Source: Methanolobus sp. (GTDB lineage Archaea; Halobacteriota; Methanosarcinia; Methanosarcinales; Methanosarcinaceae). Taken from it: DNA of 64,000 nucleotides. The DNA lies in the NCBI GenBank assembly GCA_033549165.1, contig JAWSUM010000002.1, forward strand, positions 16,211 to 80,210. The letters run 5' to 3'. The notes beneath the pieces were generated by a model. That model saw only the letters and a list, made by a program, of their open reading frames with translations. It had not been told where the DNA came from and made no database searches. Both the position numbers and the translations under genes were made by a program. Below, piece after piece: positions 31,626 to 47,803 of this stretch; the stretch's first letter is position 1, and each line of letters opens with the position of its first letter.

Positions 31626-31662
31626 ATGACACAGTAAATGATGGTTCGTCAGAAAGGAGCGT

Positions 31663-32175
31663 TCAGAAATTGCTTCTTCTGAGTACCGTCTTAATACGGG
31701 CTTTCAACTCCTTCAGGTTGAAGGGTTTTGTCACATAGTCATCAGCACCGAGTTCGAGTCCCTCTACCTTGTCATCTGTCTCCCCTTTTGCAGTTAACAT
31801 GATGACAGGAATATGGTCAGTGGAAGGATCCGATTTTAAGCGTCTGCAAACTTCGAATCCATCCATCCCCGGCATCATGATGTCAAGGAGAATAACGTCG
31901 GGATTCTCGGTTCTGGCTTTTTCGATCCCTTCAAAACCATCCAGAGCAACTATCACATTATAGCCTTCTGCTTCAAGCGCTACCTTCAGTGCGGTCAGAG
32001 CATCTATCTCCTCATCGACTATAAGCAACTTCTCACGGGTATCGGCAAGGAAATCTATCCTCTGCTGAACAAGGTTTTCTTCCAGCTCAAGTGAACTGGC
32101 AATTTCCGCAGTCGTTATGCCGGGATTCCCTTCCATTAGTGCAAGGATCTTGGGGTCAATGTTTTCCGCATCCAT
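31663..32175 (-). CDS. Response regulator with N-terminal HTH and C-terminal receiver domain
   Basis: IDPKILALMEGNPGITTAEIASSL (AsnC-like HTH), then LLIVDEE, ILLDIMMP, MLTAK, DYVTKPF. Confidence 0.88.
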   Translation of the reverse strand: MDAENIDPKILALMEGNPGITTAEIASSLELEENLVQQRIDFLADTREKLLIVDEEIDALTALKVALEAEGYNVIVALDGFEGIEKARTENPDVILLDIMMPGMDGFEVCRRLKSDPSTDHIPVIMLTAKGETDDKVEGLELGADDYVTKPFNLKELKARIKTVLRRSNF

Positions 32176-32328
32176 GATTCATACTACCTGGAACTATCAA
32201 TATTAAATACCCTGATGATGTTATTAAAACCTTTCCAAATATCAAAGAGCTTGTATTTTGATTAGACCGACTGTACGAATAAAAGAAAACCTTATAATCC
32301 ATAACCGAATATCTTAGATAAGATTAAA

Positions 32329-32613
32329 ATGGATGCACTGGAAGAGATTTTTGGAAAGACCGCCCAGATGACCGTTCTGAAAAACCTGATCCTACACCAG
32401 AACGAGTCAACATATCTATCGGGAATTGCAGAGGAAACAGGCCTTTCACATTCCAGTGTGGCAAGGGTAATCTCCCCTCTTATAAAAAGTGGTATCGTTA
32501 TCGAAAAGCCCCTTGGTAAACAGATACGCACATTCCGGCTCAATCTTGATAATAAAAAAACACAGTTGATACTGGATTTTTATAACAGGCTCAATGAGAC
32601 TGAGAACAGTTGA
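32329..32613 (+). CDS. Small winged-HTH transcriptional regulator
   Basis: YLSGIAEETGLSHSSVARVISPL..SGIV, followed by wing strands. Confidence 0.8.
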   Translation: MDALEEIFGKTAQMTVLKNLILHQNESTYLSGIAEETGLSHSSVARVISPLIKSGIVIEKPLGKQIRTFRLNLDNKKTQLILDFYNRLNETENS

Positions 32614-32638
32614 TCATCACAGTTCTGAGAAATCAAAA

Positions 32639-33298
32639 TCAGATATCTTTTTCTGAAGTCTCTCTATCCTTGACATGTGAGCTTCCCAGCATCAGCACTG
32701 CAAAATACCCGGCAAGTCTTGCGAGCAGGTTCATCAGGTGCAGCGATATGAGCCCCACCGGAATCCCCAGGACAAAGATAACCAGAGACCCATGCAGAGA
32801 ATGCACATAGAATGTACCGAAAGACAAAGACATCGGGCCTAACCGGTACAGTACCGGGGACAGGAGCATGCTCATTGTAAGTGATATAAGGACTACAGTA
32901 ACGATAAGTGACATGATCCCTATGGGGAACTTCAGGAACAAATAAAGTAGCGATTTCCATGTTACAGGGTTCTTAAGCCTTGTAATTCCCTTGCCGACAA
33001 GATCAGCATCCGGATCCGGCCCACGGGACATTGGTGGTATATCCACACCCAGGAACCATATCGCGATCTGACGCTCAAAGGATGCTATTTCCCACCAGGC
33101 AAGGAAGATCAGTACCAATATGGGAATTCCCACCCAGATGGTCATCAGGCTGAATCCAAGTGACAGGCCACTCACCAGGAACACGAAGTAAGCGGTCCCA
33201 AGAGGGAATGTGAACAGGAGATACAGGATGTTCAGATAGGTCTGCTTCCTGAAAGCAACATTCACAAAATCAACTAATGCATTTTTCTGTTCGACCAT
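32639..33298 (-). CDS. Stand-alone membrane 'putative sensor' domain protein
   Basis: YLLFTFPLG..YF, WVGIPIL, ERQ.A, W..LLYLFLKFPIG pattern typical of the Sensor/DUF membrane domain. No kinase part. Confidence 0.7.
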   Translation of the reverse strand: MVEQKNALVDFVNVAFRKQTYLNILYLLFTFPLGTAYFVFLVSGLSLGFSLMTIWVGIPILVLIFLAWWEIASFERQIAIWFLGVDIPPMSRGPDPDADLVGKGITRLKNPVTWKSLLYLFLKFPIGIMSLIVTVVLISLTMSMLLSPVLYRLGPMSLSFGTFYVHSLHGSLVIFVLGIPVGLISLHLMNLLARLAGYFAVLMLGSSHVKDRETSEKDI

Positions 33299-33393
33299 GC
33301 GTCTTCTCCCTGTACACAAATATGATCAGCGTTCGATATACAAGTTTTAATAAATGGATCACTCTGCAGGCATCGGCAGAGTAAAGCAGCCTT

Positions 33394-33630
33394 TCATCTT
33401 CCATACTCCTGGATTCTTTTTGGCCTTCTGACGAGGAAATAGAGCAAAGCCCCAAGAAGATGAGTAAAGAGTATTATGATAACCCATATCAGCTTATCGT
33501 TACCCTCCGAGGGTTCTTTCATTGCACAATCCAGGAGCATCCATACCCAGAAAACGGTCCCTATTATGCCTACCCCGAAAATGATGAAGACCATCAAAAA
33601 GGGAATTCCGATAAATAATGCATCTAACAT
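33394..33630 (-). CDS. Small PLDc_N-domain membrane protein
   Basis: W.WML.DC......DKLIW.IIILFTHLLGALLYFLV.R pattern. Confidence 0.8.
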   Translation of the reverse strand: MLDALFIGIPFLMVFIIFGVGIIGTVFWVWMLLDCAMKEPSEGNDKLIWVIIILFTHLLGALLYFLVRRPKRIQEYGR

Positions 33631-33656
33631 TTTGCCTCCTTAGTTCACTCATCATT

Positions 33657-34871
33657 TCATTCATGTCTCAGTGCATCCACAGGGTTCATCTTTGCAGCCT
33701 TGTTGGCAGGATATACACCTGCAAGCAATCCCACGATGACCGATACGAGCATCCCTACAAGGATAAGGTCCAGCGGGAAGATATATGGCAGTCCCATGGC
33801 ACTATCTGCCATATAGGCCCCGAGAACGCCAAGACCCGTACCCAATATGCCGCCTATGAGGCCCACGACCATGGACTCCACAATAAATAGGGAGAGTACC
33901 TCATGGTTCTTATAACCCAGGGACTTCATTATCCCTATCTCATTGGTCCTTTCCGTGACCGTGACCAGCATTATGTTCATTATACCGATAGAACCCACAA
34001 TAAGCGATATCAATGCAACCGAAGTCAGCAGGGCACCAAGGGCAGCAGATAACTGGTCGACCTCTTCCAGGATTTCTGCCTGATTCATGAGGGAATATGG
34101 TTTTGCATCCTCGTTATCGATATCCCTGAAAGGAACACCCAGGTCCCTTGCAAGCCGCTTGTCAAGCTCGTCGGTTACATCATTTATGGATTCCATACTC
34201 GTTGCCGCTGCAAAGAAGCCCCAGTAGTAATCTTCCCCCATGATCTCATTCATGGTTGATATGGGGATGAATATCCTTACATCGGATTCTATGCCACTCT
34301 GGACGAAGGAAGTCTCCGGACTTTTAACAATACCTTTGACCTTGAACTTCTGGGTCACGACCTCGCCGTCTGCCCTTGTGAAAGTCAGTTCAATGGTATT
34401 CTTCTCAGATATTTTTTTGTCGAACTTCTCATATGCTACGTCATGTCCCAGAACAGCCATGTACTTGTCATTGTCATCCAGGAAAGTCCCGGATTCCATC
34501 TCTATGTTTGCAACTTTCTCGTAATCCTGGGAAACACCCTGAACCTGTATCTGCCGGGTTGTGGAAATAAACTTAGCTTCGGCAACTTCCTGACTTAAAG
34601 GAGAGACGCCAATTATTCCGGGAGTGTTCTTTATCACTTCCATTTCACTATCGTGGAAGAGATTGGATGTTTTACCCTCGACGATAATGAAATTATTACC
34701 CACCGAGCCTATTTCTTCTGTGAAGAACTCATTGAAACTGGCTCCGAGTGAGACATTGGCAATTACCGCTGCTACACCAATGACAATACCCAGTGTGGTG
34801 AGTGCCGATCTCATCTTAGAGCTTCCGATACTTCCCAGTGCCATCCTGACTGAATGTGTGAGGCTGAGCAT
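33657..34871 (-). CDS. MacB/FtsX-type ABC permease
   Basis: RSALTTLGIVIGVAAV, SLIVGSIGIMNIMLVTVTERTNEIG, GVYPA.KAAKMNPVDALR. Confidence 0.93.
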   Translation of the reverse strand: MLSLTHSVRMALGSIGSSKMRSALTTLGIVIGVAAVIANVSLGASFNEFFTEEIGSVGNNFIIVEGKTSNLFHDSEMEVIKNTPGIIGVSPLSQEVAEAKFISTTRQIQVQGVSQDYEKVANIEMESGTFLDDNDKYMAVLGHDVAYEKFDKKISEKNTIELTFTRADGEVVTQKFKVKGIVKSPETSFVQSGIESDVRIFIPISTMNEIMGEDYYWGFFAAATSMESINDVTDELDKRLARDLGVPFRDIDNEDAKPYSLMNQAEILEEVDQLSAALGALLTSVALISLIVGSIGIMNIMLVTVTERTNEIGIMKSLGYKNHEVLSLFIVESMVVGLIGGILGTGLGVLGAYMADSAMGLPYIFPLDLILVGMLVSVIVGLLAGVYPANKAAKMNPVDALRHE

Positions 34872-34894
34872 AGTGGACCCTCCTTAACGTTCAC

Positions 34895-36139
34895 TCAGTT
34901 GTTCTGCTTCCTGCGTCTGTAAAGTACTACAGCCGGGAGACCCAGCAGAACGACGATTGCTAAAACCGCTGCTGCAGTTCCGTTGTTTCCCTCGTCCTCT
35001 GTGACCAGTTCTATTTCACGGCTACCTACCCCGGTCACATGTTCATTGATACCGTTCCTGTATTCGACCTCGATCGTCACGGGATAAGATGTCTTCTCAG
35101 CATCACCGCTAGCTTTGATCTCTATGGTGAACAGCTCGTCAGGGTCCATGGAGCCGATGTAGTATTCCTCAGGAGAGAAATCAAGTTCTTCCGAATATAA
35201 CCTGACACTGACTGAGTTGAGGGTGTTCGGGTGCATGTTAGCCACATCGAACTCGAAGGTCCCTTCACCGTTAGTAAGCACCAGTAGTTTTGAAGGTATG
35301 ACCTTCACTGCTGAGGAATCAACAGTTATGGGAATTCTCCAGTTGCTGTTATACTCGTGGGAATTGCCTACCATGGAAAGTTCCAGATAGTAAGTACCAT
35401 CCTCTATCTCATCACTGATCTCTACGTTGTAGCTCAGGGATATGGAGTCACCGGGACCTATCACACCGGAACCTTCGTATGTGTCACTGCTAACTTCGAT
35501 ACCATCCGAGCCCTTCAGCACCGCAGACTGGACCCTGGCATTGGTATCATAGTCCACGCCGCCTATAGTGACTGAGCTGGTGGTCGCAGTATTGACAAGT
35601 GTGAAACTTACAGTGCCCTTATCCCCCGGCATGAAAACTTCAGGGTCACTTGATATGGACTCCAGGTGTATGGTCCCTTTGCTGTCAAAGGAAGCAGAAC
35701 CGACTTTCAGGTCAAAGGTCTTCTTGAACCAGGTATCACCTGCATCTGTCTGGTAATAGATATCTATGCTGCCTGTACCGACCCTTGCATTCTTGTCCAC
35801 GAACAAACGATATTCCTTTACCGCTGCATCTTCGGGAGAAAGGATGCCAATCTGTTTAACAGCATTTTTCTCCGAGTCAAGAGAGAAAGGATACTCCGGC
35901 TCGAGCCTGACAGAAACTGCATTCGCACGGCCATAACCTATGTTCTCGATCTTGACCGTGACATCCACATATTCACCGATCTCCGCGGGGTAGGGGTCGT
36001 ACTCTATGACGTCCACCTTGAGGTTTGCAGCCGAGGCCGCAGATACAGGTGTCATGAATGCAGTGAACATCAATCCGATACAAAAAAGTGAACCTAAAAT
36101 TTTCCTGATGGAATCGTTAATTTCAACCATATCAACCAC
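34895..36139 (-). CDS. COG1361 S-layer-domain surface protein (signal peptide + C-terminal anchor); start may be 36130
   Basis: Signal peptide ending VSA, YDPYPAEIGEY, Ig-like beta repeats, C-terminal TM + RRRK. Confidence 0.85.
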   Translation of the reverse strand: MVDMVEINDSIRKILGSLFCIGLMFTAFMTPVSAASAANLKVDVIEYDPYPAEIGEYVDVTVKIENIGYGRANAVSVRLEPEYPFSLDSEKNAVKQIGILSPEDAAVKEYRLFVDKNARVGTGSIDIYYQTDAGDTWFKKTFDLKVGSASFDSKGTIHLESISSDPEVFMPGDKGTVSFTLVNTATTSSVTIGGVDYDTNARVQSAVLKGSDGIEVSSDTYEGSGVIGPGDSISLSYNVEISDEIEDGTYYLELSMVGNSHEYNSNWRIPITVDSSAVKVIPSKLLVLTNGEGTFEFDVANMHPNTLNSVSVRLYSEELDFSPEEYYIGSMDPDELFTIEIKASGDAEKTSYPVTIEVEYRNGINEHVTGVGSREIELVTEDEGNNGTAAAVLAIVVLLGLPAVVLYRRRKQNN

Positions 36140-36140
36140 T

Positions 36141-36854
36141 TCAGTTATTCTCGATTATTCCGTCTTTTATCAGCACGACCCTGTCCACATACTTTTTCAT
36201 CTCATGATCGTGGGTAATCATTACAATAGTACGACCTCTTCCATGGAGCTCTGAGAAGATCCCCATGATCTCTTCACTGGTCTTTGAATCCAGGTTACCG
36301 GTGGGCTCATCTGCAAGGATGAGGGAGGGGTCGTTTATGAGTGACCGGGCTATTGCAACTCTCTGTCGCTGTCCCCCGGACAGTTCGGTTGGCTTGTGAT
36401 GCAGCCGGTCATCAAGACCTACCAATGCCAGCAGGTCCCTTGCCCTTTGGGCTGCATCCATATCCTTCTTTGAATTGGAATAGGTGGGGAGCAGCACATT
36501 CTCATAGGCGCTTAAACGTGGTATCAGATTGAAGTTCTGGAAAACAAAGCCAATCTCAAAACCACGGAGTTCCGCAAGTTCATTATCAGATATGGCTGCT
36601 GTGTCTTTCCCCATTAACCGGACGTGGCCGCTTGTCGGCCTGTCAAGGCAGCCTATCATGTTCATCAGTGTGCTCTTACCTGAACCTGAAGGACCCATTA
36701 TCGCAACGAATTCACCTTTTTTCACATTGAGATCTATCCCGTGAAGAATAGGGACTTCCATATCCCCAAGACGATAACTCTTCTTCAGATCATGTATCGC
36801 AATAACGTCCAACTGGACATCTGAAACCGAACTATTCGAACTGCTGCCAACCAT
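36141..36854 (-). CDS. ABC ATPase (MacB/LolD type)
   Basis: GPSGSGKST, LSGGQRQR, ILADEPTGNLD, ITHD. Confidence 0.95.
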   Translation of the reverse strand: MVGSSSNSSVSDVQLDVIAIHDLKKSYRLGDMEVPILHGIDLNVKKGEFVAIMGPSGSGKSTLMNMIGCLDRPTSGHVRLMGKDTAAISDNELAELRGFEIGFVFQNFNLIPRLSAYENVLLPTYSNSKKDMDAAQRARDLLALVGLDDRLHHKPTELSGGQRQRVAIARSLINDPSLILADEPTGNLDSKTSEEIMGIFSELHGRGRTIVMITHDHEMKKYVDRVVLIKDGIIENN

Positions 36855-36996
36855 AAATATACCTCTAGTGCTTTCATCTAACATATCGTCGTAAAACTTG
36901 ACTATTTATCGACAAGTTAGACTATATGCTTCGAGTACTTAAACCTTTTTACAAATCGACCAGTTAGCCTAAAAAAAGATACAACTGGAGGGAACA

Positions 36997-38211
36997 TCAT
37001 TCATGCCTGAGAGCTTCCACCGGGTCCAGACTGGAAGCCCTGCTGGCAGGATAAACACCTGCAATAAGACCTACGACAAATGATATGGCAAAACCAAGGA
37101 GGATCAGGTATGCAGGAAATACCCTGGGAATGTCGAGATATGTCTCGACCACGAAAGAGCCTAGCATCCCCAGAAGAGTACCGAGGATACCGCCTATTAT
37201 ACCAACAATTACGGATTCCAGCATGAACAGTGTCAGTATATCAGATCTGGTGAAACCCAGTGCCTTGAAAAGGCCTATCTCCTTTGTCCTTTCAGTGACC
37301 GTTACCAGCATGATGTTCATGATACCAATGGAGCCGACTACCAGGGCTACCAGCGCTATTACTGTGATCAATATAGTAAGTGAATCGGCGAGAGTATTCA
37401 GTTGATCCAGGATGTCGGCCTGATTGAAGATGCGGTACGGTTTTGCATCGGGGTTCTCCAGATCACGTACCGAAACCCCCAGATTGCGGGCAAGCCTTCT
37501 GTCAACTTCATCAGAAACCTCCCTTACGGATTCGGCTGACGCGGTCTTGGCGGAAAAACCACTGTAATCCTCCACACCCAGGATCTCATTCATCGTATCT
37601 ATCGGTATATAGATGCTTACATCCCGGTCCGGACCACCCTGTACGAAGGTGTTATCCTGGCCTTCCAGTATCCCCTTGACCCTGAACTTTTGTGTGACGG
37701 TGGTCCCGTCATTCCTGCGGAAGGTGATATCAATATAGTTCTTAATGAAAACAGGCTGATCGAACTTCTCCCCGGCAACCTCATTTCCGAGTACCGCTAC
37801 ATACCGGTCCTTATCAGTGAGAAAGTTACCTTCCTCTAAGACCAGATTGGATATGTCCTGGGCATCCGCCCCCACGCCCTGGACATCTATCTGCCGTGTA
37901 GACGAAAGATAGGTTACAGCCGCCGTTTGCTGGTTGAATGCCGACGCTCCCACAATACCAGGAGTGTTTTTTATGACATCAAGCTGATCGTCGTAGAAAA
38001 TGTTGACATCCTGACTGTAGATTATTATGAAATCTGAACCAAGAGAACCGAGTTCATCGGTAAAGTACTGGTTGAAGCTGGTTCCGAGCGAGACATTTGC
38101 AACCACTGCAGCCACACCTATGATTATTCCAAGAGTTGTCAGTGTCGACCGTAGTTTCGCACTCCTGATGCTCCCGATAGCAATACCTATTGCCTGCCTG
38201 ATGCCTATCAT
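36997..38211 (-). CDS. MacB/FtsX-type ABC permease
   Basis: Same motif set as the 33657 permease. Confidence 0.93.
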   Translation of the reverse strand: MIGIRQAIGIAIGSIRSAKLRSTLTTLGIIIGVAAVVANVSLGTSFNQYFTDELGSLGSDFIIIYSQDVNIFYDDQLDVIKNTPGIVGASAFNQQTAAVTYLSSTRQIDVQGVGADAQDISNLVLEEGNFLTDKDRYVAVLGNEVAGEKFDQPVFIKNYIDITFRRNDGTTVTQKFRVKGILEGQDNTFVQGGPDRDVSIYIPIDTMNEILGVEDYSGFSAKTASAESVREVSDEVDRRLARNLGVSVRDLENPDAKPYRIFNQADILDQLNTLADSLTILITVIALVALVVGSIGIMNIMLVTVTERTKEIGLFKALGFTRSDILTLFMLESVIVGIIGGILGTLLGMLGSFVVETYLDIPRVFPAYLILLGFAISFVVGLIAGVYPASRASSLDPVEALRHE

Positions 38212-38219
38212 ACTCTACC

Positions 38220-39434
38220 TTATTCTTTTCTCAATGCTTCAACCGGGTCCATATTTGCCGCCTTGTTGGCAGGATAGACACCTGCGATCAGCCCAACAGC
38301 GACGGCCACTACAAATCCGAGGATAATTTGTTCGACCGGGAAGATGTTAGGCAGATCCAGATAGCTATTAACAACAAGGGCTGCCGCTATACCCATTGCA
38401 GTTCCAAGTACGCCACCTATCAGACCAACTATCATAGACTCGATAATGAACAACGCCAGGACGTCGTTCTTAGTGTAACCCAGAGCCTTGAGCAGGCCTA
38501 TCTCCTTTGTCCTTTCCGCAACCGTGACCAGCATTATGTTCATTATACCAATGGAACCGACTATAAGCGAGATCAATGCAACCGATGTCAGAAGAGCTGT
38601 AAGTGCAGTAGAGAGCTGGTTCGTCTGATCAAGGATCTCAATCTGGTCAAAGACGGTATATGGTTTTGCATCGGGATTATCAAGATCTCTTGCAGAAACT
38701 CCGAGACTGCGCGCCAGACGTTCATCTATCTCGGTTCTGGTTGAATTGATAGCCTCAAAACTCTCGACCTTTATGAAAAAACCGCCATAATAATCCACAC
38801 CAAGGATCTCGTTCATCGTGTCGATAGGAATGAATGTACGTATCTCCGGTTCCACACCTGTCTGAGCAAAAGTAGTGTTGGGATTCTGCACTATGCCCTT
38901 GACTATGAACTTCCGGGTAACGACCCCTCCGTCCTCACGCCGGAAGGTTATCTCTATGGGATTATTCACCGATATCTTCCTCCCGAACTTATCGTAGGCT
39001 ACTTCCGAACCAAGTACCGCCATATATCTGTCGGTCTCTTCAAGGAAAGTACCTGCTTCCATTTTGAAGTTAGCGACCTCATCATAATCCGAATTCACTC
39101 CCTGGATGTCTATCTGCCGGGAAGTAGAGAGATACGTCACCTTTGCCATTTGCTGGTTTATAGGCGATACACCGGCAACTTCCGGAGTATTCTGTATAAG
39201 TTCAAGCTGTCTCCCGGAGAATACATTGTTATTCTGACTGTAAATGACAATGAAATTGGAGCCGACAGCCCCTATCTCATCATTGAAGAACTGGTTGAAA
39301 CTGGCTCCGAGAGATACGTTGGCAATCACTGCTGCAACCCCGATGATGATTCCAAGGGTAGTAAGGCTGGACCTGAGCTTTGAGCTGCCGATGCTTCCCA
39401 GAGATATACTGAGAGATTGCTTCAGGCTTAACAT
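38220..39434 (-). CDS. MacB/FtsX-type ABC permease
   Basis: Same motif set. Lies 8 bp upstream of the next permease. Confidence 0.93.
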   Translation of the reverse strand: MLSLKQSLSISLGSIGSSKLRSSLTTLGIIIGVAAVIANVSLGASFNQFFNDEIGAVGSNFIVIYSQNNNVFSGRQLELIQNTPEVAGVSPINQQMAKVTYLSTSRQIDIQGVNSDYDEVANFKMEAGTFLEETDRYMAVLGSEVAYDKFGRKISVNNPIEITFRREDGGVVTRKFIVKGIVQNPNTTFAQTGVEPEIRTFIPIDTMNEILGVDYYGGFFIKVESFEAINSTRTEIDERLARSLGVSARDLDNPDAKPYTVFDQIEILDQTNQLSTALTALLTSVALISLIVGSIGIMNIMLVTVAERTKEIGLLKALGYTKNDVLALFIIESMIVGLIGGVLGTAMGIAAALVVNSYLDLPNIFPVEQIILGFVVAVAVGLIAGVYPANKAANMDPVEALRKE

Positions 39435-39446
39435 TAAGTCAGCACC

Positions 39447-40688
39447 TTATTGTTTCCCCTTCCTGCGCCTATACCACATATATCCCACAACAGCTATTCC
39501 CAGCAGTACAACAATGCCAGCGACAATACCGAAAGTATTGCTCTCTTTAACCACAGTATTTCTTAGTTCGTGAACATCAGCTATTTCAGAATGGCTGTTC
39601 TGGCCGTTCCTGTAATTGGCAATTACGGTCATCTCTGTGGAATAATCAGTTGTTGCATTGCTTGCATTTGCGGTGAACTGTATTGTAAAGAGCTCGTCCG
39701 GGTCCATTGCACCTATGAAGTACGAAGTCGGGGAAAAATCCACGCCATCTGCCTGAGGTCGTATGCTAACGGATGAGAGCATATTGGGATGGGTGTTCGC
39801 CACATCGAATTCAAGGGTACCTCCACCATTTGTAATAGTTAGCTGTTGTGAGGGTATTACTGTGACTGCGGATGAATCAACCGTAATAGGGATTCGCCAG
39901 TTATTGTTATAGGCATGGGAGCTGCCTACAGTGGAAAAATCCAGATAGTAGGTCCCATCTTCCACTTCATCGCCGACCATTATGTTATAGGTCAGGTTCA
40001 GGGACTCGCCCGGCCCTATGACCCCGTTGCCGTAATAGGTATCAGTGGTCACGTCTATGCCATCTGCCCCCTCTAAGGATGCGGACTGTACCCGGGCGTT
40101 AGTGTCAAATTCCTCTCCATTGACCGTTACTGAATTACTGGTTGCGATGTTTGCTAATGTGATCTTTATAGTTCCACGGTTTCCGGGCATAAAGACCTCA
40201 GGTTCTAAAATAGGACTGCCCTGGAGCTGCACATTGCCTTTGCTATCAAAGGTTGTCGATCCGACGGTTATGTCGAACTCTTTCTTGTACCATGTCCCTT
40301 CTGTGTCTTCACGATACCATACCTCTATGGTATCTACCCCGTTTTTCGCATTGTCATCAACAAAAAGGCGATACTCTTCCACCGCTGCATTATCCGGTGT
40401 CAGTATTCCTATGTCCTTGACGGCATTGCCCGGGGAATCGAGGGAAAAAGGATAGTCAGGCACCATCATGACCTGAACGTCCTCAGCCTTTGCATAACCG
40501 AGATTCTCTATCTTGACCCACACGGTCACATACTCCCCTATCTGAGCAGGCACTGGCTCGTAACGCAATACAGATACCTGCAGGTCAGCCCCTTCTGCAG
40601 CAATGGCAGGCCCACATAATAAGAAAAGAATGGCTGCAAAGTAAACCACATATTTGCAGATCGTTCCTGGGTTTGATGAACTCAGCAT
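39447..40688 (-). CDS. COG1361 S-layer-domain surface protein
   Basis: Signal peptide ending AIA, YEPVPAQIGEY, clear paralog of 34895. C-terminal TM + RRRK. Confidence 0.85.
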   Translation of the reverse strand: MLSSSNPGTICKYVVYFAAILFLLCGPAIAAEGADLQVSVLRYEPVPAQIGEYVTVWVKIENLGYAKAEDVQVMMVPDYPFSLDSPGNAVKDIGILTPDNAAVEEYRLFVDDNAKNGVDTIEVWYREDTEGTWYKKEFDITVGSTTFDSKGNVQLQGSPILEPEVFMPGNRGTIKITLANIATSNSVTVNGEEFDTNARVQSASLEGADGIDVTTDTYYGNGVIGPGESLNLTYNIMVGDEVEDGTYYLDFSTVGSSHAYNNNWRIPITVDSSAVTVIPSQQLTITNGGGTLEFDVANTHPNMLSSVSIRPQADGVDFSPTSYFIGAMDPDELFTIQFTANASNATTDYSTEMTVIANYRNGQNSHSEIADVHELRNTVVKESNTFGIVAGIVVLLGIAVVGYMWYRRRKGKQ

Positions 40689-40698
40689 ATTTCCTCCT

Positions 40699-41403
40699 TC
40701 ATTCCGCACCGATCACTCCGTCTCTGAGGTGAACCACCCGGTCCGCATATCCCGTCAGCTCAGAATCGTGGGTGATCATGATTATTGTCCTTCCTTTTTT
40801 ATGCAGGTCGGTGAAAATGTTCATTATCTCATTGCCGGTCTTTGAATCAAGATTTCCTGTTGGCTCGTCAGCAAGGATTAGAGACGGGTCATTTATGAGC
40901 GACCGGGCTATTGCAACTCTCTGCTGCTGCCCTCCCGATAACTCAGTGGGCTTATAGCTGATGCGATCCTGCAGCCCTACCAGTTCGATGAGTTCCTTTG
41001 CCCTTTTACTGCCATCGATACCTTCCTTTTTGTTTGCATAGGTCGGCAGTTCAACATTCTGGAGAGCACTCAACCGGGGAACCAGATTAAATGTCTGAAA
41101 AACAAAACCGATCTCAAGACCACGCAACCTTGCGAGTTCTACTTCTGAAAGACTGTTAACATCCTTTCCCATCACAATGACCCGGCCGTGTGTAGGCCTG
41201 TCCAGACAACCGATCATGTTCATCAATGTACTTTTGCCTGAACCCGACGGGCCCATTATCGCAACGAACTCCCCTTTTTTCACAGACATATCTATGCTTT
41301 TCAGGATAGGGACTTCCATGTCACCTACCTGATAACTCTTGCAGAGATCTTTGAGTTCGATTACGGGTTCTCCTCTCTCTAAACTGTCGCGTGCTTCATC
41401 CAT
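40699..41403 (-). CDS. ABC ATPase (MacB/LolD type)
   Basis: Walker A/B, LSGGQQQR, H-loop. Close paralog of 36141. Confidence 0.95.
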   Translation of the reverse strand: MDEARDSLERGEPVIELKDLCKSYQVGDMEVPILKSIDMSVKKGEFVAIMGPSGSGKSTLMNMIGCLDRPTHGRVIVMGKDVNSLSEVELARLRGLEIGFVFQTFNLVPRLSALQNVELPTYANKKEGIDGSKRAKELIELVGLQDRISYKPTELSGGQQQRVAIARSLINDPSLILADEPTGNLDSKTGNEIMNIFTDLHKKGRTIIMITHDSELTGYADRVVHLRDGVIGAE

Positions 41404-41608
41404 GTTTAGCCCCTGACCAAAGGATGCAGACTAGAATCACTCCTGGAATTTGCTCATTTTCCAATAAAAGAAGAGATGGTTGAAATTATAAATACTTTAT
41501 TTGATTGAAGTTCACATAAAAAAATGTAGCCTGATGCAAAGGTATAAATATATTGGTTGTGAAAGGTTTGGCTATAAATCGACGAGTCTGAATATAGAAA
41601 CATAATAA

Positions 41609-42244
41609 TTGGAAGTGTCAGGAATGCTTGAAGTACTTACAGACCCGAATGGGTTTTTCAAAAGAAAAAGTAATGAAGATATTGAATTCAAAACACCACT
41701 TATGATCATTGCCATTCTAGCGATCGTAGGGGCCATTAGTGCTTTTGTAGTGACACAGGGCGTAATGGAAGTACTGCCAGAGGAAGCTGCTGCCTTTGCA
41801 GCGATCGGAGCAGCTTTCGGGGCAATTGCAGCCTTTATCATGACATTTATCATGTGGATTATATATACTGCAATTTTTTACCTGATCTCCATGATATTCC
41901 ATGGAGAAGGGAACTTTAAAAGAGTACTTGAATTCGTATCCTACGGATACATACCCACCATAGTAAGCTCCATAATCGGTACATATTTTACGAGCAGGAT
42001 CTATTCCAACATTGATTGGTCGATGGACCCGGAACTTCTTCAGGAAGCACTGTTATCTGATACTTCCCTGCAGATATCCGGAATCATAGGGATACTGTTT
42101 TTACTATGGAGTGCCAACATATGGATATTCGCACTGGTACATTCCAGGAACCTGTCGGTGAAAGACGCATCCATCACCGTGGGAGTACCGATCCTGCTCT
42201 ACATACTTTATACATTATACCAATTGAGATTATTCGGTGCATGA
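41609..42244 (+). CDS. Yip1-family membrane protein
   Basis: LTDPNGFF N-terminus, G.G.F..V....SYG.IP, five TM helices. Confidence 0.85.
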   Translation: MEVSGMLEVLTDPNGFFKRKSNEDIEFKTPLMIIAILAIVGAISAFVVTQGVMEVLPEEAAAFAAIGAAFGAIAAFIMTFIMWIIYTAIFYLISMIFHGEGNFKRVLEFVSYGYIPTIVSSIIGTYFTSRIYSNIDWSMDPELLQEALLSDTSLQISGIIGILFLLWSANIWIFALVHSRNLSVKDASITVGVPILLYILYTLYQLRLFGA

Positions 42245-43455
42245 ATTTGAAAACTACCTTAAAAACAATCATGGCAGCCTGCCTTATCCTGGCTGCCTGT
42301 TCCTCTTTTGCTCTTGCAGATACCGGGATCAGACCGACGGTCACAATAAGTTATACAATGGAACCTGAAGTGCTTATGCCCGGTGATACCGGAACTATAA
42401 CAATAACAATGCAAAAAAATGCATATATTGCCAATGCAGCAGTTGAGGGGAATGAGGTTATTGAAATACTTGGAGAAAGCTATACGGATGTAGGTCTTGT
42501 GGGACCTGGAGACGCGCTTGAGCTTACGTTCAACATTAAGGCCAAAGATGATGCACCGAATGGAGTTCATTTCCTTGACCTAGAAATTGCCGGTGGGAGT
42601 ACTGCGTATGACTTCAACTCCAGGATACCCGTAAAGGTCGATGACAGGGATCTCAAGCTTATTATATCAAACCTCCCGTCGACCCTGATGAACGAAGTAT
42701 CTTCCGTAAGCGTTGAAGTGGTGAACAGGCGAGCGAATGAAGTAACAAATGTCATCGTAAGTCCTGAGGGGGATGGGATGGTATTCAGCCCTTCCGAGAT
42801 ATTCATTGGCGCTATCCCGGCAGGGAATAAGTCCACAGCGACCTTTACCCTGAATACGATGAACTCCCAGATTCAGACAGGTAATGTTTCCTTCTCGGTG
42901 TCCTACTTCAACGGGGACAATTTCCACAATTCAGGAAAGGTAACAAGAGAAGTGGATATCATAGACCAGCATTCCCTTATTTTCACATCGATCGAGATGG
43001 AGAAGAGCGGAAATAAGTATACGTTCTCAGGAGACCTCAACAACTTTGGGACCACCGATGCAAAGAATGTCATCGTTTCTATCCCAAGATCAGACTCCAT
43101 TGTACCGGTCCAGCCATACGCGAAATACTTTATCGGAACGCTTGAGGCGGATGATTTCAGCAGTTTTGAACTTTCGGCACAGGTATTGTCCGGTGATGTT
43201 TCAAGTATTCCGGTATTGATAGAGTTCAGGGACCCCAATAATGCCTATATTTCCATGCAGGAGAGTATCGATGTGGACGGACAAGTCTCATTCGCAGGAA
43301 GCAGTGATGAGGAAAGTGGAACTCCTTTTGCACTCTGGGCAGTTGCCGGGATAGTTGCTGTTTCAATCGTGGGAGTTATAGGATATTCATGGAAGAAGCG
43401 CAGGGACGAGGCAAAAGCCGGACAAGAGGAAGATACTGAACTCTCCGAAAACTGA
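42241..43455 (+). CDS. COG1361 S-layer-domain surface protein
   Basis: The ATG overlaps the Yip1 stop (ATGA). Signal peptide, PEVLMPGD, FIGTLEADDFSSFEL, C-terminal TM + KKRR. Confidence 0.85.
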   Translation: MNLKTTLKTIMAACLILAACSSFALADTGIRPTVTISYTMEPEVLMPGDTGTITITMQKNAYIANAAVEGNEVIEILGESYTDVGLVGPGDALELTFNIKAKDDAPNGVHFLDLEIAGGSTAYDFNSRIPVKVDDRDLKLIISNLPSTLMNEVSSVSVEVVNRRANEVTNVIVSPEGDGMVFSPSEIFIGAIPAGNKSTATFTLNTMNSQIQTGNVSFSVSYFNGDNFHNSGKVTREVDIIDQHSLIFTSIEMEKSGNKYTFSGDLNNFGTTDAKNVIVSIPRSDSIVPVQPYAKYFIGTLEADDFSSFELSAQVLSGDVSSIPVLIEFRDPNNAYISMQESIDVDGQVSFAGSSDEESGTPFALWAVAGIVAVSIVGVIGYSWKKRRDEAKAGQEEDTELSEN

Positions 43456-43470
43456 TACGTCGGTGCTGAC

Positions 43471-44157
43471 ATGGCAAAACCCATCGTAGAACTCAGAGAT
43501 GTGACAAAGATCTACACCCTTGGAAAGAACAAGATATTTGCCCTGAACAAGGTAAACATATCCATCGAGAAGGGTGACTTTGTCACGATAATGGGCTCCT
43601 CAGGCTCCGGGAAGAGCACGCTTCTCAATATGGTCGGATGCCTTGACCTTCCCACAAGCGGGAAGGTGATGATCAATGGTACCGACATCTCCAGACTTGA
43701 TGATGACGGACTGACATCCATCAGAAGGAACAACATCGGTTTCATTTTTCAGCAATTCAACCTCATCCAGACTCTTACGGCCCTTGAGAACGTGGAAATG
43801 CCTATGATATTCAATGGCGCATCCCCTGAGAAACGCAGGAACAAGGCATTGGAACTTTTTAAAAAGGCACAGCTTCCGGCAGAGTATGACCAGCATAAGC
43901 CAAACGAAATGTCAGGAGGACAGCAGCAGAGGGTCGCCATTGCAAGGGCACTGGCAAATGATCCGCCCATACTGCTTGCCGATGAGCCCACAGGAAACCT
44001 TGATTCAAAGACAGGGCACAGTGTGATGGAACTGCTGCAGGAGCTGAACATGGCAGGAACTACTGTCATCGTGGTCACACACGACCCAAAGCTGGAAGAG
44101 TTCTCAAATACAACCATAAGACTGCAGGACGGGGTGGTATGTGATGAGAATTGCTGA
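43471..44157 (+). CDS. ABC ATPase (MacB/LolD type)
   Basis: GSSGSGKST, MSGGQQQR, LADEPTGNLD, VTHD. Confidence 0.95.
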   Translation: MAKPIVELRDVTKIYTLGKNKIFALNKVNISIEKGDFVTIMGSSGSGKSTLLNMVGCLDLPTSGKVMINGTDISRLDDDGLTSIRRNNIGFIFQQFNLIQTLTALENVEMPMIFNGASPEKRRNKALELFKKAQLPAEYDQHKPNEMSGGQQQRVAIARALANDPPILLADEPTGNLDSKTGHSVMELLQELNMAGTTVIVVTHDPKLEEFSNTTIRLQDGVVCDENC

Positions 44158-45307
44158 TCCCCTGAAGAACAATATGTATGCCGAGCTTGCCAAAAGGAAC
44201 CTCAAAAGGCAATCCATCAGAACGATACTGGCAGCCATAGGTATAATCATAGGTGTCATCGCCATATCCTCCATGGGAATACTGGGCAACACCATGAAAC
44301 TGTCTGTTACGGATTCTTTTGCCGACATCGGTGACAAGCTCATGGTATACCCTGCACCCGGAGAAGATTCCATCACCGATAAACAGATAGATCAGATCCT
44401 AAAGGTAGCCGGGATCGATAAGATAATCCCGCTCAGGTCAAGTGGCGAGAGGGTGGAGTACAAGAATGAGGATACCTTTGCTTCGATCTATGATATTGAA
44501 GAGGATGGGCTTGCCAGCCTTGCAGAACTGGAGGAAGGAAGGTACTTCAAACCAGGCTCAACGGACTGCGTGGTCGGTTCGACCGTAGCAGAGAACCTGG
44601 ACATTACCGTGGGCAGCAAGATAGTCATAGACGATTCGAAGCTGAGGGTAGTAGGCATCCTGAAGGAAAGGGGACTCGGCTTCGACATTGATACGGATAG
44701 CGGAATATTCACTTCATCGGAAATGTATGATAAACTCTACCCGGATGAAGAAGAAGGATATGGCTCTGCAATAATAACTGTCGACGACATCGATGAGCTT
44801 GATAGGGTTCAGGAAGATATCGAAGACAGGATCAATAAGAAAGATGATCTCATCATGATCTTTGCCACCAATATGATCTCCGAAAGTATCGATGGTGTCT
44901 TTGATGCGATATCCCTTTTCCTTATGGGCATCGGCTCGATATCCCTTCTGGTGGCAGGTGTAAGCATACTCAACGTTATGCTCATGTCCACCATGGAGCG
45001 CACAAAGGAGATAGGAGTGATGAAGGCAGTGGGAGCATCCAGAAGAGACATACTCAAGATGTTCCTGCTGGAAGCACTCTTCCTGGGAGTTGCAGCAAGC
45101 CTTATCGGCGGCTTATTGACCCTTGGAGGCAGCTATATGGTCATCTCTTTCATTATGGATGATGCTGCATACCTGCTGAAGTTCTCTAACATTGTATATA
45201 TTATGGAAGGAGTGTTCTTCGGGATTGGTACAAGCCTGCTCGGCGGCATGTATCCCGCATGGAAGGCTTCACGGATGAAACCACTGGATGCTCTAAGGCA
45301 TGAATGA
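44144..45307 (+). CDS. MacB/FtsX-type ABC permease
   Basis: RTILAAIGIIIGV.AI, SLLVAGVSILNVMLMS.MERTKEIG, YPAWKAS.MKPLDALR. Confidence 0.93.
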   Translation: MRIADPLKNNMYAELAKRNLKRQSIRTILAAIGIIIGVIAISSMGILGNTMKLSVTDSFADIGDKLMVYPAPGEDSITDKQIDQILKVAGIDKIIPLRSSGERVEYKNEDTFASIYDIEEDGLASLAELEEGRYFKPGSTDCVVGSTVAENLDITVGSKIVIDDSKLRVVGILKERGLGFDIDTDSGIFTSSEMYDKLYPDEEEGYGSAIITVDDIDELDRVQEDIEDRINKKDDLIMIFATNMISESIDGVFDAISLFLMGIGSISLLVAGVSILNVMLMSTMERTKEIGVMKAVGASRRDILKMFLLEALFLGVAASLIGGLLTLGGSYMVISFIMDDAAYLLKFSNIVYIMEGVFFGIGTSLLGGMYPAWKASRMKPLDALRHE

Positions 45308-45497
45308 GAATAAGAAGGATTTACTTCCAGGTTCACTTTCTGGAGGTTTCCTGCTTTTTCAATTTCTCCTCTTTATTGTAGGATAGATACCTGATCTTTA
45401 TCATTTAGCATGATTTGCGCTAAGTACTCCCCCTGAAGATGCATTGATATAAATACTATCACTGAATAAATTTGATTTAAATCACGGGAGCCTCAAA

Positions 45498-46622
45498 ATG
45501 CTTAGACTGCTGAAAATGCGATCCACATTTGTTTTACTTACCTGCTTCTTATTGATATTTGTGTTCACCGGCAACGCACTTGCACAGGAATGTCCTGAGG
45601 ATACCGGAGTAGGTGTTACCGATTTCTATTCAGACATCGAGAGTGGTGATCTGACGGTATACTCAGCAACCGGAATGGAAGGAATGGAAGTTGAGCTATC
45701 ACTGGAACACGAAGGTGATATGCTTGATGAGAAGACACTCAATATTAGAAGAGTAGCTCCCGGCTCAAATACTGTCAAGGTCTTCGAATGGGACACGGAC
45801 AGCAAAGATGATGGCAGATATACGGTAGAAGTCCGCATAATGAAGGATGATTGCCTGCTGTATACAAACAGTTACTCATTCGTGCATGGCAGACAGGTCA
45901 TTCCGAGGGTAAAGATAGATGACCTCATAGCCAACTCAGAAGGTTTCAGCCTGATGATAACCCCGGTACAGCCTGTTCTCGTTGATGCAACATACATGCT
46001 TGTGGACGGCTCCGACGTGATATATATGGACGAACAGGAAAGGATTGCCCTGAACACAATGCCACTTGAACTGAGTGAACAGTGGAACACATTGCTGACA
46101 AATGGCAAGGAATACAAAGGGCGAGTGAAAATAAGAATGTACACGCCACCCGATACTATTGCGACTATGCAGGAATTCACGGCAAAGGATGATGTTTTTA
46201 TAAGCGATACCTATCAGGATGAGATCGGTGCGAGTGCAACCATTGACGGCAGGTCACAGGTACCCTTCAAAGGTGCTGTGAGATTCACGGTTCTGAATGA
46301 CGATGACGGTGAGGATATTGTTGAGACAGTCATCCAGAATTCCCCGATACTCCTTAGCGGGGATGATGAGACCGTGGAAGCCATCTGGGAAGAAAGACTT
46401 CCCGAGGGCATATACAAGCTTATCATCGAAGTGATCGGTAACGACGGGGACATACTGGACGTTAGGGAAACCATTATTGAAGCCGAAGCTCCCCGCAACG
46501 TGACAAACACTACTAATGAAACCGAAAGTCCGACTAACCAGAGTCCCGGATTCATGGGGATACATTCCATCATAGTCCTTGTTGCAGCTATTTTCCTAAT
46601 CCGGCTGAAGAAAAAGTGGTAG
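45498..46622 (+). CDS. Secreted surface protein with PGF-CTERM-like sorting signal
   Basis: Signal peptide ending ALA; Thr/Asn-rich linker with four N-glycosylation sequons; SPGF + TM + KKK C-terminus. Confidence 0.75.
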   Translation: MLRLLKMRSTFVLLTCFLLIFVFTGNALAQECPEDTGVGVTDFYSDIESGDLTVYSATGMEGMEVELSLEHEGDMLDEKTLNIRRVAPGSNTVKVFEWDTDSKDDGRYTVEVRIMKDDCLLYTNSYSFVHGRQVIPRVKIDDLIANSEGFSLMITPVQPVLVDATYMLVDGSDVIYMDEQERIALNTMPLELSEQWNTLLTNGKEYKGRVKIRMYTPPDTIATMQEFTAKDDVFISDTYQDEIGASATIDGRSQVPFKGAVRFTVLNDDDGEDIVETVIQNSPILLSGDDETVEAIWEERLPEGIYKLIIEVIGNDGDILDVRETIIEAEAPRNVTNTTNETESPTNQSPGFMGIHSIIVLVAAIFLIRLKKKW

Positions 46623-46630
46623 GTGCACGG

Positions 46631-47803
46631 ATGCGTTACGAGCTGTTCATCGCGATCCGCCATATAGTAGCACGAAAACGCCAGACGATACTTTCAGTTG
46701 CGGCTATCGGGATAGCCGTCATGATCCTCCTGGTCTCACAGGCATTCATGGTCGGTTTCACTCAGGAACTGTATGACAAGACCGTAGCCAATCTGCCGCA
46801 TGTGGTAGTATCACCCCAGGAAGGGGACGATTATATCCACCTTTACCAGAACATTATCACCAAGATCAATGGCATCGATGGGGTCGTTGCATCATCCCCG
46901 TACCTTGTGGGGGAAGCGTCCTTCAATTTCAGGGATAACACTAAGAACGCGGCGCTCAAGGGAGTTGTTCCCCCAGAAGAAGATGCGGTTGCCCACATTC
47001 AACAGGATGTGATCATGGGCAGCTTTGAAGAACTTGCCTATTCCACAAATACTATCATGATAGGGGACGACCTTGCGGATGAGCTGGAACTTGAGTTAGG
47101 GGATTCGGTGGAAGTATCTTTCCCGAATGCAAATACGCTTTCCCTGAAAGTCATAGCGATCTTTGACACCGGAACTCCGGCAGATGAAAGCCTGACATAT
47201 ACATCCCTTGAGACCTCCCAGAGATTCTTTGACACGGGCAATGTCATCAACGGCATATCCCTGAGGCTGGAGGATTTCAATCAGGACCAGCAGGTGGCAT
47301 CCATTATACAGGCAGAAGGTTACGATGCAAGCGGCTGGACCGAGAACAACCCCGAGATATTGAGGACCCTGGCAATAGAGAGAACATCCAATAACGTTAC
47401 ATTGGGCTTTATCCTGCTGATCGCATCTTTCGGAGTGGTGAGTACGCTCAACATGGTAGTGATGGGAAAGATAAGGGAGATAGGCATCCTCATGGCAATG
47501 GGCGCCAACAGGTCCAATATCAGAATGATCTTTCTGATGGAAAGCGGCCTGTTAGGACTTGCAGGTGCTGTACTTGGCACAGTTGCAGGTATCATTATCG
47601 CACTTGCCATAGGCAACTATGAAGTTCCCCAGGGAGCATATGAAGGGACATTAGAGGGTATTTCGTTCATACCTGTCATAATAAGACCCCTGGACGTCCT
47701 CATCATAATAACTGCCGTTTTCCTGCTGAACCTGATAGCAGGGATCTACCCCGCCCAGCGTGCAGCCAGTTTTGACCCTGTGACGGCGATATCCGCGAAG
47801 TGA
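46631..47803 (+). CDS. LolC/E-like ABC permease
   Basis: YELFIAIRHI..RK, PHVVV, KIREIGILMAMGA, IYPAQRAA. Confidence 0.9.
   Translation: MRYELFIAIRHIVARKRQTILSVAAIGIAVMILLVSQAFMVGFTQELYDKTVANLPHVVVSPQEGDDYIHLYQNIITKINGIDGVVASSPYLVGEASFNFRDNTKNAALKGVVPPEEDAVAHIQQDVIMGSFEELAYSTNTIMIGDDLADELELELGDSVEVSFPNANTLSLKVIAIFDTGTPADESLTYTSLETSQRFFDTGNVINGISLRLEDFNQDQQVASIIQAEGYDASGWTENNPEILRTLAIERTSNNVTLGFILLIASFGVVSTLNMVVMGKIREIGILMAMGANRSNIRMIFLMESGLLGLAGAVLGTVAGIIIALAIGNYEVPQGAYEGTLEGISFIPVIIRPLDVLIIITAVFLLNLIAGIYPAQRAASFDPVTAISAK

Follow-up and report, generated by a model that had tools for sequence, protein, structure and literature searches.

Proteins of the COG1361 type bear the name of an S-layer family in the databases, and the question raised by the locus described here is why a protein of this kind should be encoded in each of several neighbouring exporter modules. 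The locus lies in a 64,000-nucleotide (nt) stretch of DNA from Methanolobus sp. ("the window", to which coordinates without a prefix refer), where genes for such proteins accompany those of ATP-binding cassette (ABC) exporters related to MacB. Exporters of the MacB and RND types are well understood in bacteria, where adaptor proteins are required for their function. Archaea possess many such exporters and, to our knowledge, no recognisable adaptor, and we know of no study of how these pumps work at the archaeal envelope. Because the pairing of COG1361 protein and pump is kept across many archaea without the bacterial adaptor, the protein labelled "S-layer" is probably an accessory of the pump: with a probability of roughly 0.6, in our estimate, it is a dedicated third subunit of an archaeal exporter with an adaptor-like role. 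What is new is the prospect of a MacB-type pump with a non-homologous accessory.

According to the listing of open reading frames (ORFs) and Pfam, positions 33394-47803 comprise three complete ABC modules of the MacB/FtsX type (A, B and C) and a fourth pair, D, and in each of the four a secreted, C-terminally anchored protein is encoded. The original prediction, made from the letters of the window, had described three linked modules; its genes were all recovered where it had placed them, as was their tight packing (spacing within modules A-C from -17, an overlap, to +26 nt), but the cluster extends further than had been recognised, since pair D, which starts 190 nt past module C, had been overlooked. 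If S denotes a COG1361-like protein, A an ABC ATPase and P a permease (not to be confused with the module letters), the gene orders A-S-P, (Yip1)-S-A-P and S-P-A are all present in this Methanolobus genome. The genes of the three complete modules are the following, where TM stands for transmembrane.

33394-33630, minus strand: module B PLDc_N protein, small, with two TM segments, last gene of the module (Pfam PF13396, 8e-12; two hydrophobic segments; 26 nt past the permease gene).
33657-34871, minus strand: module B permease, MacB_PCD + FtsX (Pfam, 7.7e-28 and 1e-24; 1+3 TM layout).
34895-36130, minus strand: module B COG1361 protein (CARDB match of 28 bits; AlphaFold; Foldseek; NCBI name of its orthologues).
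36141-36854 or 36141-36884, minus strand: module B ABC ATPase, the start at 36854 being more likely (ABC_tran, 5e-36; LolD/MacB-like; catalytic motifs).
36997-38211, minus strand: module A permease 1, MacB_PCD + FtsX (Pfam).
38220-39434, minus strand: module A permease 2, MacB_PCD + FtsX (Pfam; sequence matches in the PDB).
39447-40688, minus strand: module A COG1361 protein (phmmer homology; build as in the module B protein).
40699-41403, minus strand: module A ABC ATPase (ABC_tran, 3.8e-34).
41609-42244, plus strand: module C Yip1-family protein with four TM segments, first gene of the module (Pfam Yip1, 7e-25, 88 bits).
42241-43455, plus strand: module C COG1361-like protein (phmmer; no Pfam match).
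43471-44157, plus strand: module C ABC ATPase (Pfam; catalytic motifs).
44141-45307, plus strand: module C permease, MacB_PCD + FtsX (Pfam).

In the ATPases of all three modules, the Walker A motif, the signature motif (LSGGQ or MSGGQ), the Walker B glutamate and the H-loop are intact, and ABC_tran is matched at about 1e-34 to 5e-36. All five permeases match both MacB_PCD and FtsX above the cut-offs. Their topology is characterised by one N-terminal and three C-terminal hydrophobic segments around an extracytoplasmic loop of ~240 residues; the 1+3 segments were found in four of the five, the last segment of the module C permease having been missed by a simple hydropathy scan. As judged from sequence, modules A-C are MacB-type (type VII) ABC systems with regard to ATPase and permease alike. 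The nearest NCBIfam model to the module B permease is MacB, at a score under the cut-off of that model, and for the module B ATPase the best models are LolD and MacB, which score almost equally. Among structures in the PDB, the module A permease 2 matches by sequence the MacB chains 5nik, 5gko and 5lil and the Streptococcus pneumoniae permease Spr0695 (5xu1_M), while the top matches of the module A ATPase are 5xu1_A (Spr0694) and MJ0796, with MacB also related.

The third component is of a different kind. The COG1361 proteins of modules A, B and C each begin with a hydrophobic signal segment and close with a TM helix plus a basic tail of RRRK (as in module B) or KKRR (as in module C), an architecture that had been predicted and that is borne out for all three by translation and hydropathy; the anchor is a plain TM helix without sorting motif. 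The proteins of modules A and B share ~55% identity. A CARDB match is found in the module B protein (28 bits versus a cut-off of 22.7); the module A protein is sub-threshold or unmatched in Pfam, yet homologous by phmmer, and the module C protein, likewise without Pfam match, is related to the other two at 1e-28 to 1e-34 in phmmer, lacking their N-terminal domain and possessing an additional C-terminal one. NCBI annotates orthologues of the module B protein as "COG1361 S-layer family protein", and the nearest protein matches all come from Methanolobus. Its AlphaFold model (predicted local distance difference test score 81.8) consists of three tandem beta-sandwiches (residues 37-144, 154-270 and 275-376) and a helix (386-409), and Foldseek retrieved exclusively tandem immunoglobulin (Ig)-like proteins with it, namely hydin-type ASH repeats, integrin leg domains and MG domains of alpha-2-macroglobulin. 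The hairpin, lipoyl and barrel domains of membrane-fusion proteins (MFPs) are absent from this predicted fold, and the sequence search of the PDB with a COG1361 protein returned noise only. The family is large: it comprises 4007, 2107 or 483 clusters at 50% identity for E<=1e-3, 1e-10 and 1e-30, respectively, most of them ~400-460 amino acids (aa) long and aligning end to end.

How firmly this protein belongs to the pump was addressed by a gene-neighbourhood census of 27 genomes from 25 families of the phylum, based on COG1361 profile and Pfam FtsX searches, in which 81 merged COG1361-like loci were the units and 3.5 kb was the proximity threshold to an FtsX domain. Such a census had been suggested with the original prediction, and its outcome is strongly positive. 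This threshold was satisfied by 31 of the 81 loci, compared with ~1% expected for random genes. By adjacency, an FtsX/MacB-type permease is found at 33 loci and an MMPL/RND exporter at 29, together 62 of 81, which leaves 19 beside neither class. In most of the 27 genomes the top-scoring COG1361 locus adjoins an FtsX permease, and an iterated local profile revealed a diverged partner beside several seemingly "unlinked" permeases. Thirty-two linked loci that were retrieved display three fixed, co-directional orders, A-S-P(-P), (Yip1)-S-A-P and S-P-A, with many ATGA overlaps. Within the Methanolobus genome, all five COG1361 homologues found by a first-pass phmmer search lie between or beside ATPase and permease genes, in units with 4-nt overlaps or gaps of ~25 nt or less; two units are located outside the window (C28:20032-23346 and C1:26086-29488, with 4-nt overlaps). 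A second pass with a wider profile added more distant COG1361-like proteins, the nearest of which are encoded beside other exporters. Beside eight of the nine FtsX-type permease genes of this genome lies a gene for a beta-rich partner with a TM anchor at its C-terminus; one of the eight partners is represented only by a 202-aa ORF without signal segment. The census supports a dedicated partnership of COG1361 proteins with MacB-type ABC modules. Breadth beyond the phylum is taken from the literature, as word-based protein searches with alignments returned mainly Methanosarcinaceae proteins and reached no named organism of another phylum.

A few loci depart from the common arrangement. In L012 an 877-aa open frame gave the appearance of an S-permease fusion, which turned out to be two genes split by an in-frame TAG; the COG1361 and permease genes (L012:5956-8541) are in the same frame with the TAG and two codons between them, and read-through would fuse them. 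L036 and L040, loci from two families, have two secreted proteins (320-330 and 554-594 aa) encoded after the permease-ATPase pair in place of COG1361; the larger has CARDB-like repeats, and these proteins may constitute a second partner family. The sole family without a COG1361 match (L034 and L035) has only fused double permeases of 967-988 aa, an ATPase gene accompanying each.

Could COG1361 proteins nevertheless be ordinary surface or S-layer-associated proteins that lie near transporter genes by chance? The databases' "S-layer family" name and the 19 of 81 loci beside neither exporter class would suit such a reading, which we regard as extremely improbable: with 62 of 81 loci beside one of two exporter classes versus ~1% by chance, and with gene order and overlaps fixed across 25 families, chance adjacency is excluded. 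The S-layer itself points in the same direction. In Methanosarcina, the model genus of the family, it is built of DUF1608 proteins, the major ones being MA0829, Mbar_A1758 and MM1976 (PMC3361143), and in Pfam none of the four anchored proteins of modules A-D matches DUF1608. Moreover, Thermoplasma and Ferroplasma, in which an S-layer has not been observed, are reported to have COG1361 genes as well (PMC10354927). Nothing in the present data ties the system to the S-layer, and we reject the proposal, contained in the original prediction, that the proteins couple the ABC system to it.

Among the modules, the four-gene variant C could be followed most widely. Its order, Yip1, COG1361-like protein, ATPase, permease, corresponds to W-X-Y-Z of the Bacillus subtilis yknWXYZ operon with COG1361 in the X slot, as had been predicted, and the cassette is conserved across several orders. 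The Yip1 protein, which belongs to a subfamily marked by a "WSANIWIF" motif, scores 88 bits with Pfam Yip1, above the cut-off, and 44 bits with NCBIfam YknW_fam versus an equivalog cut-off of 110; by these scores it is a member of the superfamily and not a YknW equivalog. A Yip1-alignment scan of one genome per species, which is biased toward Yip1-linked cassettes, yielded 174 loci. Among the best 80, which were inspected, at least 60 have S-A-P directly downstream on the same strand, and the remainder are mostly cut contigs. The loci span Methanosarcinales, Methanomicrobiales and the anaerobic methanotrophic (ANME) groups ANME-1, ANME-2 and ANME-3, plus one bacterial metagenome-assembled genome (MAG) that is probably mis-binned. 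Independent gene calls and precomputed Pfam matches were also consulted for three distant relatives of the module C protein, and all three reside in Yip1-CARDB-ABC_tran-MacB_PCD/FtsX cassettes; since both surveys agree, the four-gene order is real and conserved. The bacterial case (L134) is a contig binned as a "Desulfobacteria bacterium" MAG with an archaeal-type Yip1-S-A-P whose Yip1 is 44% identical to that of the window, reflecting a binning error or a transfer. At L064 (G088:C1:1280000-1291000) a Yip1-COG1361 pair is found with no ABC genes on the same strand and an ATPase gene nearby on the opposite one.

If the three proteins operate together, they might be expected to diverge together. 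Pairwise distances in 39 modules were compared by Mantel tests, yielding correlations of 0.53 for S-permease, 0.59 for S-ATPase and 0.83 for permease-ATPase (all p<0.0005), which answers in the affirmative the co-phylogeny check suggested with the original prediction. On a tree of 76 permeases, which includes several wholly S-linked clades and several losses, S-linkage is clustered (18 label changes versus 26.5 after shuffling; 0 of 200 shuffles as low). By this pattern, each module is passed on and diversifies as a whole, which is not proof of physical contact. Of the prediction's "dedicated archaeal extracytoplasmic adaptors", the dedicated partnership with the ABC proteins is upheld by census and co-divergence. 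With its Ig-like fold, the protein is not a homologue of MFPs.

The rates of divergence also bear on a different explanation, in which the Ig-like protein serves at the surface as receptor, decoy or sensor, with peptides, viruses or neighbouring cells as the external agents that it might bind, and is connected to the pump only through shared regulation or signalling. S proteins evolve far faster than their pumps, Ig-like/CARDB repeats are typical of binding modules, and sensor and two-component genes lie beside module B. Related loci have in fact been discussed in terms of defence: Makarova et al. (Extremophiles 2014, PMC4158269; Biochimie 2015, PMC5898192) described loci with Yip1, SalXY-type ABC proteins and "S-layer proteins" in Archaeoglobi, Methanococci and Thermococci and proposed a membrane-remodelling or membrane-associated defence system with variable membrane components. 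However, the S gene lies between the ATPase and permease genes, with stop and start codons overlapping in many lineages, an interleaving that suggests stoichiometric co-production, and its length and domain number are well conserved (~400 aa, end-to-end matches), unlike those of hypervariable recognition proteins. We therefore consider a receptor function quite improbable.

The original prediction knew of no experimental description of such a system in methanogens. We found no experimental study on COG1361, CARDB, MMPL, FtsX or type VII ABC systems in archaea, and no paper in this literature in which the COG1361 protein is picked out as the partner of a pump; the gene neighbourhood as such is not wholly undescribed, as Makarova et al. 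mention it. Their loci bring the same kinds of genes together. They differ from the present account in that the mention is made in passing and centred on other families, that COG1361 is not singled out as a fixed pump partner, and that neither a census nor an experiment on these loci is included.

COG1361-like proteins are not confined to MacB-type pumps. In the Methanolobus genome, an MMPL/RND exporter gene (C7:3393-5759) is followed by those of two COG1361-like anchored proteins (4-nt overlap, 2-nt gap). Of the 43 MMPL genes in the 27 genomes, 26 adjoin a COG1361-like gene; tight, co-directional MMPL-COG1361 pairs are present at 18 or more of the 20 loci retrieved. RND/MMPL and MacB-type pumps are the classes that rely on single-pass adaptor proteins in bacteria, and the second pairing therefore strengthens the reading as an accessory subunit and weakens the "S-layer" label. 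A wider claim, that COG1361-type proteins are the general archaeal counterpart of periplasmic adaptors, of unrelated fold and obligatory as extracytoplasmic subunits in MacB-type, MMPL/RND and possibly ABC-2 exporters, and that the label "S-layer family" on thousands of database entries is wrong, is one that we put forward tentatively, at somewhat less than even odds. As further observations on such loci, a TrmB-like regulator gene follows the MMPL and the two COG1361-like genes (C7:292-5759); a COG1361-like secreted protein without clear C-terminal anchor is encoded just after an ABC-2 exporter consisting of ATPase and ABC2_membrane permease (C64:2927-5834); and in L009 ABC-2 genes are located directly upstream of an S-A-P module.

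Pair D, in which a permease is encoded with an anchored protein of another family, introduces the most serious competing explanation. The 190-nt spacer between C and D contains an oligo-T run and a TATA-like TATAAATA box, and the two genes are as follows.

45498-46622, plus strand: module D anchored protein, 374 aa (translation; AlphaFold; Foldseek).
46616-47803, plus strand: module D LolCE-like permease (Pfam; TIGR02212, 233 bits versus a cut-off of 362).

The permease gene overlaps that of the anchored protein by 7 nt and has no adjacent ATPase gene of its own. The anchored protein has a signal peptide and, in a model with a score of 73.6, three FnIII/Ig-like beta-sandwiches on a C-terminal helix; Foldseek matches are tandem FnIII domains, and no Pfam family is assigned. 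Since hhalign gives a probability of 5% for its family versus COG1361, so that homology is not detectable, we treat it as analogous and not homologous to the COG1361 proteins, whose build it shares. Homologues adjoin permeases in another genus. The protein and two homologues end in PGF, a TM helix and a basic tail, resembling PGF-CTERM, with no match of the module D protein to the NCBIfam sorting-domain model, and archaeosortase A is encoded in the same genome (TIGR04125, 268 bits; C30:10853-11635); because of this end and the presence of the enzyme, the protein is probably lipid-anchored.

These features pose the question of a Lol-like machine that handles a lipid-anchored protein in an archaeon. 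More generally, the anchored Ig-like protein could be a client, which the ABC or MMPL machine extracts, positions, matures or turns over in the way LolCDE acts on lipoproteins. The relationship of the permeases to LolC/E, clearest in module D (TIGR02212), and the PGF-CTERM-like end with archaeosortase A and a probable lipid anchor, which would suit Lol-type machines, lend such an explanation its greatest weight for module D. Overall it is unlikely: to keep one private pump per client, with 5-8 paralogous copies in a genome, would be a waste; the COG1361 family occurs beside the mechanistically different MacB-type and MMPL exporters, and also beside an ABC-2 exporter at one Methanolobus locus and at one mixed locus of another genome; a sorting motif is missing from the plain TM anchors of the A, B and C proteins; and just one of ~16 PGF-CTERM proteins of the genome adjoins a permease.

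Further along the window, an orphan LolCE-like permease, paralogous to that of module D, is encoded at 48472-49641, and an orphan LolD-like ATPase is encoded apart from it at 54089-54799 in unrelated surroundings (pyrophosphatase-like, LysE, LarA, enolase). A CetZ-like tubulin gene (55639-56745) is directly preceded by that of a DUF11/CARDB surface protein (56823-58088), both on the minus strand.

On its other side, module B adjoins a block of candidate regulatory genes (29868-33319) on which the original prediction had been silent. These genes and two intergenic regions of the cluster, read by eye, are listed here.

29868-31625, minus strand: histidine kinase, dCache + HisKA + HATPase_c (Pfam).
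31663-32175, minus strand: response regulator, HTH_24 + receiver domain (Pfam).
32639-33319, minus strand: "Putative sensor" family (PF13796) protein with multiple membrane passes (Pfam, 3.4e-31; hydropathy).
36885-36996, minus strand: A-B spacer, with a T7 run just past the permease stop and an AT-rich promoter-like element.
41404-41608, no strand assigned: divergent intergenic region between A and C, with TATA-like boxes.

Gene order from module B through the Sensor gene to the kinase gene is retained in 9 of 12 Methanosarcinaceae genomes, comprising all seven of the same genus and two from further genera. The sensor, the response regulator and the kinase are the probable controllers of module B.

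The third-subunit reading could translate into the following mechanism. Each module would act as a type VII (MacB-like) ABC mechanotransducer composed of an ATPase dimer and a permease dimer, the latter a homodimer in modules B and C and, by analogy with LolC/LolE, probably a heterodimer of permeases 1 and 2 in module A. The ~240-residue extracytoplasmic domain of each permease would move with ATP hydrolysis. The C-terminal helix of the COG1361 protein would be positioned beside the permease helices, and its three Ig-like domains beside or above the permease ectodomain, where the protein, with its unrelated fold, may do the job that membrane-fusion adaptors do in bacterial MacB pumps: it could aid the assembly of the pump and receive, guide or hold material that the moving ectodomain expels from the outer membrane leaflet or from the space beneath the cell wall. 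In module C the Yip1 protein may modulate assembly, as YknW does in Bacillus, and module B would respond to its neighbouring regulatory genes. The task of the modules is likely to be the efflux or clearance of membrane-active compounds, such as peptides, lipophilic toxins or the cell's own exported products, with paralogous modules possibly covering different substrates.

The analysis establishes the gene content, the architecture and class of fold, the conserved close linkage with its co-divergence and the want of a convincing MFP match; contact between COG1361 protein and permease, the adaptor-like role, the class of substrate and the regulation are inferred. Several points weigh against this account. 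Ig-like repeats are generic modules of surface proteins. The correlation of S with the permease is below that of the permease with the ATPase (0.53 versus 0.83), and any operon that is inherited whole would yield such a correlation. Repeated losses of linkage have occurred, with an ATPase alone or another secreted partner beside the permeases of some clades, and no COG1361-permease fusion protein was found in the loci surveyed. Finally, the anchor of COG1361 proteins is C-terminal, whereas those of MFPs and of mycobacterial MmpS are N-terminal.

A fixed, non-homologous partner is nonetheless a concrete candidate subunit for experiment. If the reading is true, a widespread annotation would be corrected (~2100 clusters labelled S-layer, at 50% identity and E<=1e-10) and an archaeal solution to the adaptor problem would be defined, which could help to explain the resistance of methanogens and ANME archaea to membrane-active compounds or the export of envelope components. 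The window is a good entry point, as it offers three gene-order variants side by side together with a candidate regulator.

How, then, do these modules compare with established systems? Clear relatives by sequence are MacAB(-TolC) and Spr0693-0694-0695 of S. pneumoniae (PDB 5xu1, 5nik, 5lil), with which they share clearly related ATPases and permeases (5xu1_A, 1.4e-74; 5nik, 2.7e-39) and the permease topology with its large ectodomain. The bacterial pumps depend on an adaptor of the MacA/Spr0693 type, whereas the archaeal genome has none and the partner is non-homologous: a search for HlyD_D23 (MFP) in 28 genomes gave one marginal match and none in the Methanolobus genome, and there was no match in Methanocaldococcus jannaschii, Haloferax volcanii and Methanosarcina acetivorans, controls that have FtsX permeases. 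In contrast to MacAB(-TolC), there is no outer-membrane duct in the archaeon, and ATPase and permease are encoded by separate genes.

LolCDE is resembled in that the module D permease is nearest to the LolC/E models and the module ATPases score near-equally with LolD and MacB. All archaeal scores are under the equivalog cut-offs, however (TIGR02212, 233 versus 362 for the module D permease; TIGR02211, 242 bits versus 307.75 for the module B ATPase), and the archaeal host has no outer membrane and an anchored beta-sandwich protein as partner. For the COG1361 family, though not for the ABC modules of the window, a parallel exists in mycobacteria, where the single-pass adaptor MmpS5 is needed for assembly and function of an MmpL RND exporter (PMC12122801). 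In both cases the gene of an RND/MMPL exporter is accompanied by one for an anchored accessory with a single membrane pass; MmpS is a small protein with an N-terminal anchor, whereas the archaeal proteins have 350-1070 aa, several domains and a C-terminal anchor, and the two are not known to be homologous.

The counterpart in gene order is YknWXYZ of B. subtilis and B. amyloliquefaciens, a four-component MacB-type pump that protects against the SDP toxin. The original prediction's description of the B. subtilis system, a Yip1-like protein (W), a membrane-fusion adaptor (X), a MacB ATPase (Y) and a permease (Z) that act in peptide resistance, agrees with the literature (PMC4887032, PMC5985334). 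Module C shares with it the split MacB-type ATPase and permease, a Yip1 gene in first place, a single-pass extracytoplasmic accessory in second place and a single-membrane host; in Bacillus the second slot is occupied by an MFP with N-terminal anchor, in the archaeon by three Ig-like sandwiches with C-terminal anchor, and modules A and B lack the Yip1 gene. What had been called a candidate "YknWXYZ-like envelope system" is such in gene order and slot, and its membership of the YknWXYZ family of MFP-dependent pumps is rejected in view of the different adaptor fold, the Yip1 score under the cut-off and the absence of an MFP match in the genome. Because the COG1361 fold is not MFP-like, the parallel is one of analogy and not of homology: a role in peptide defence would be a guess drawn from it, and the archaeal modules may function like YknWXYZ without belonging to its family.

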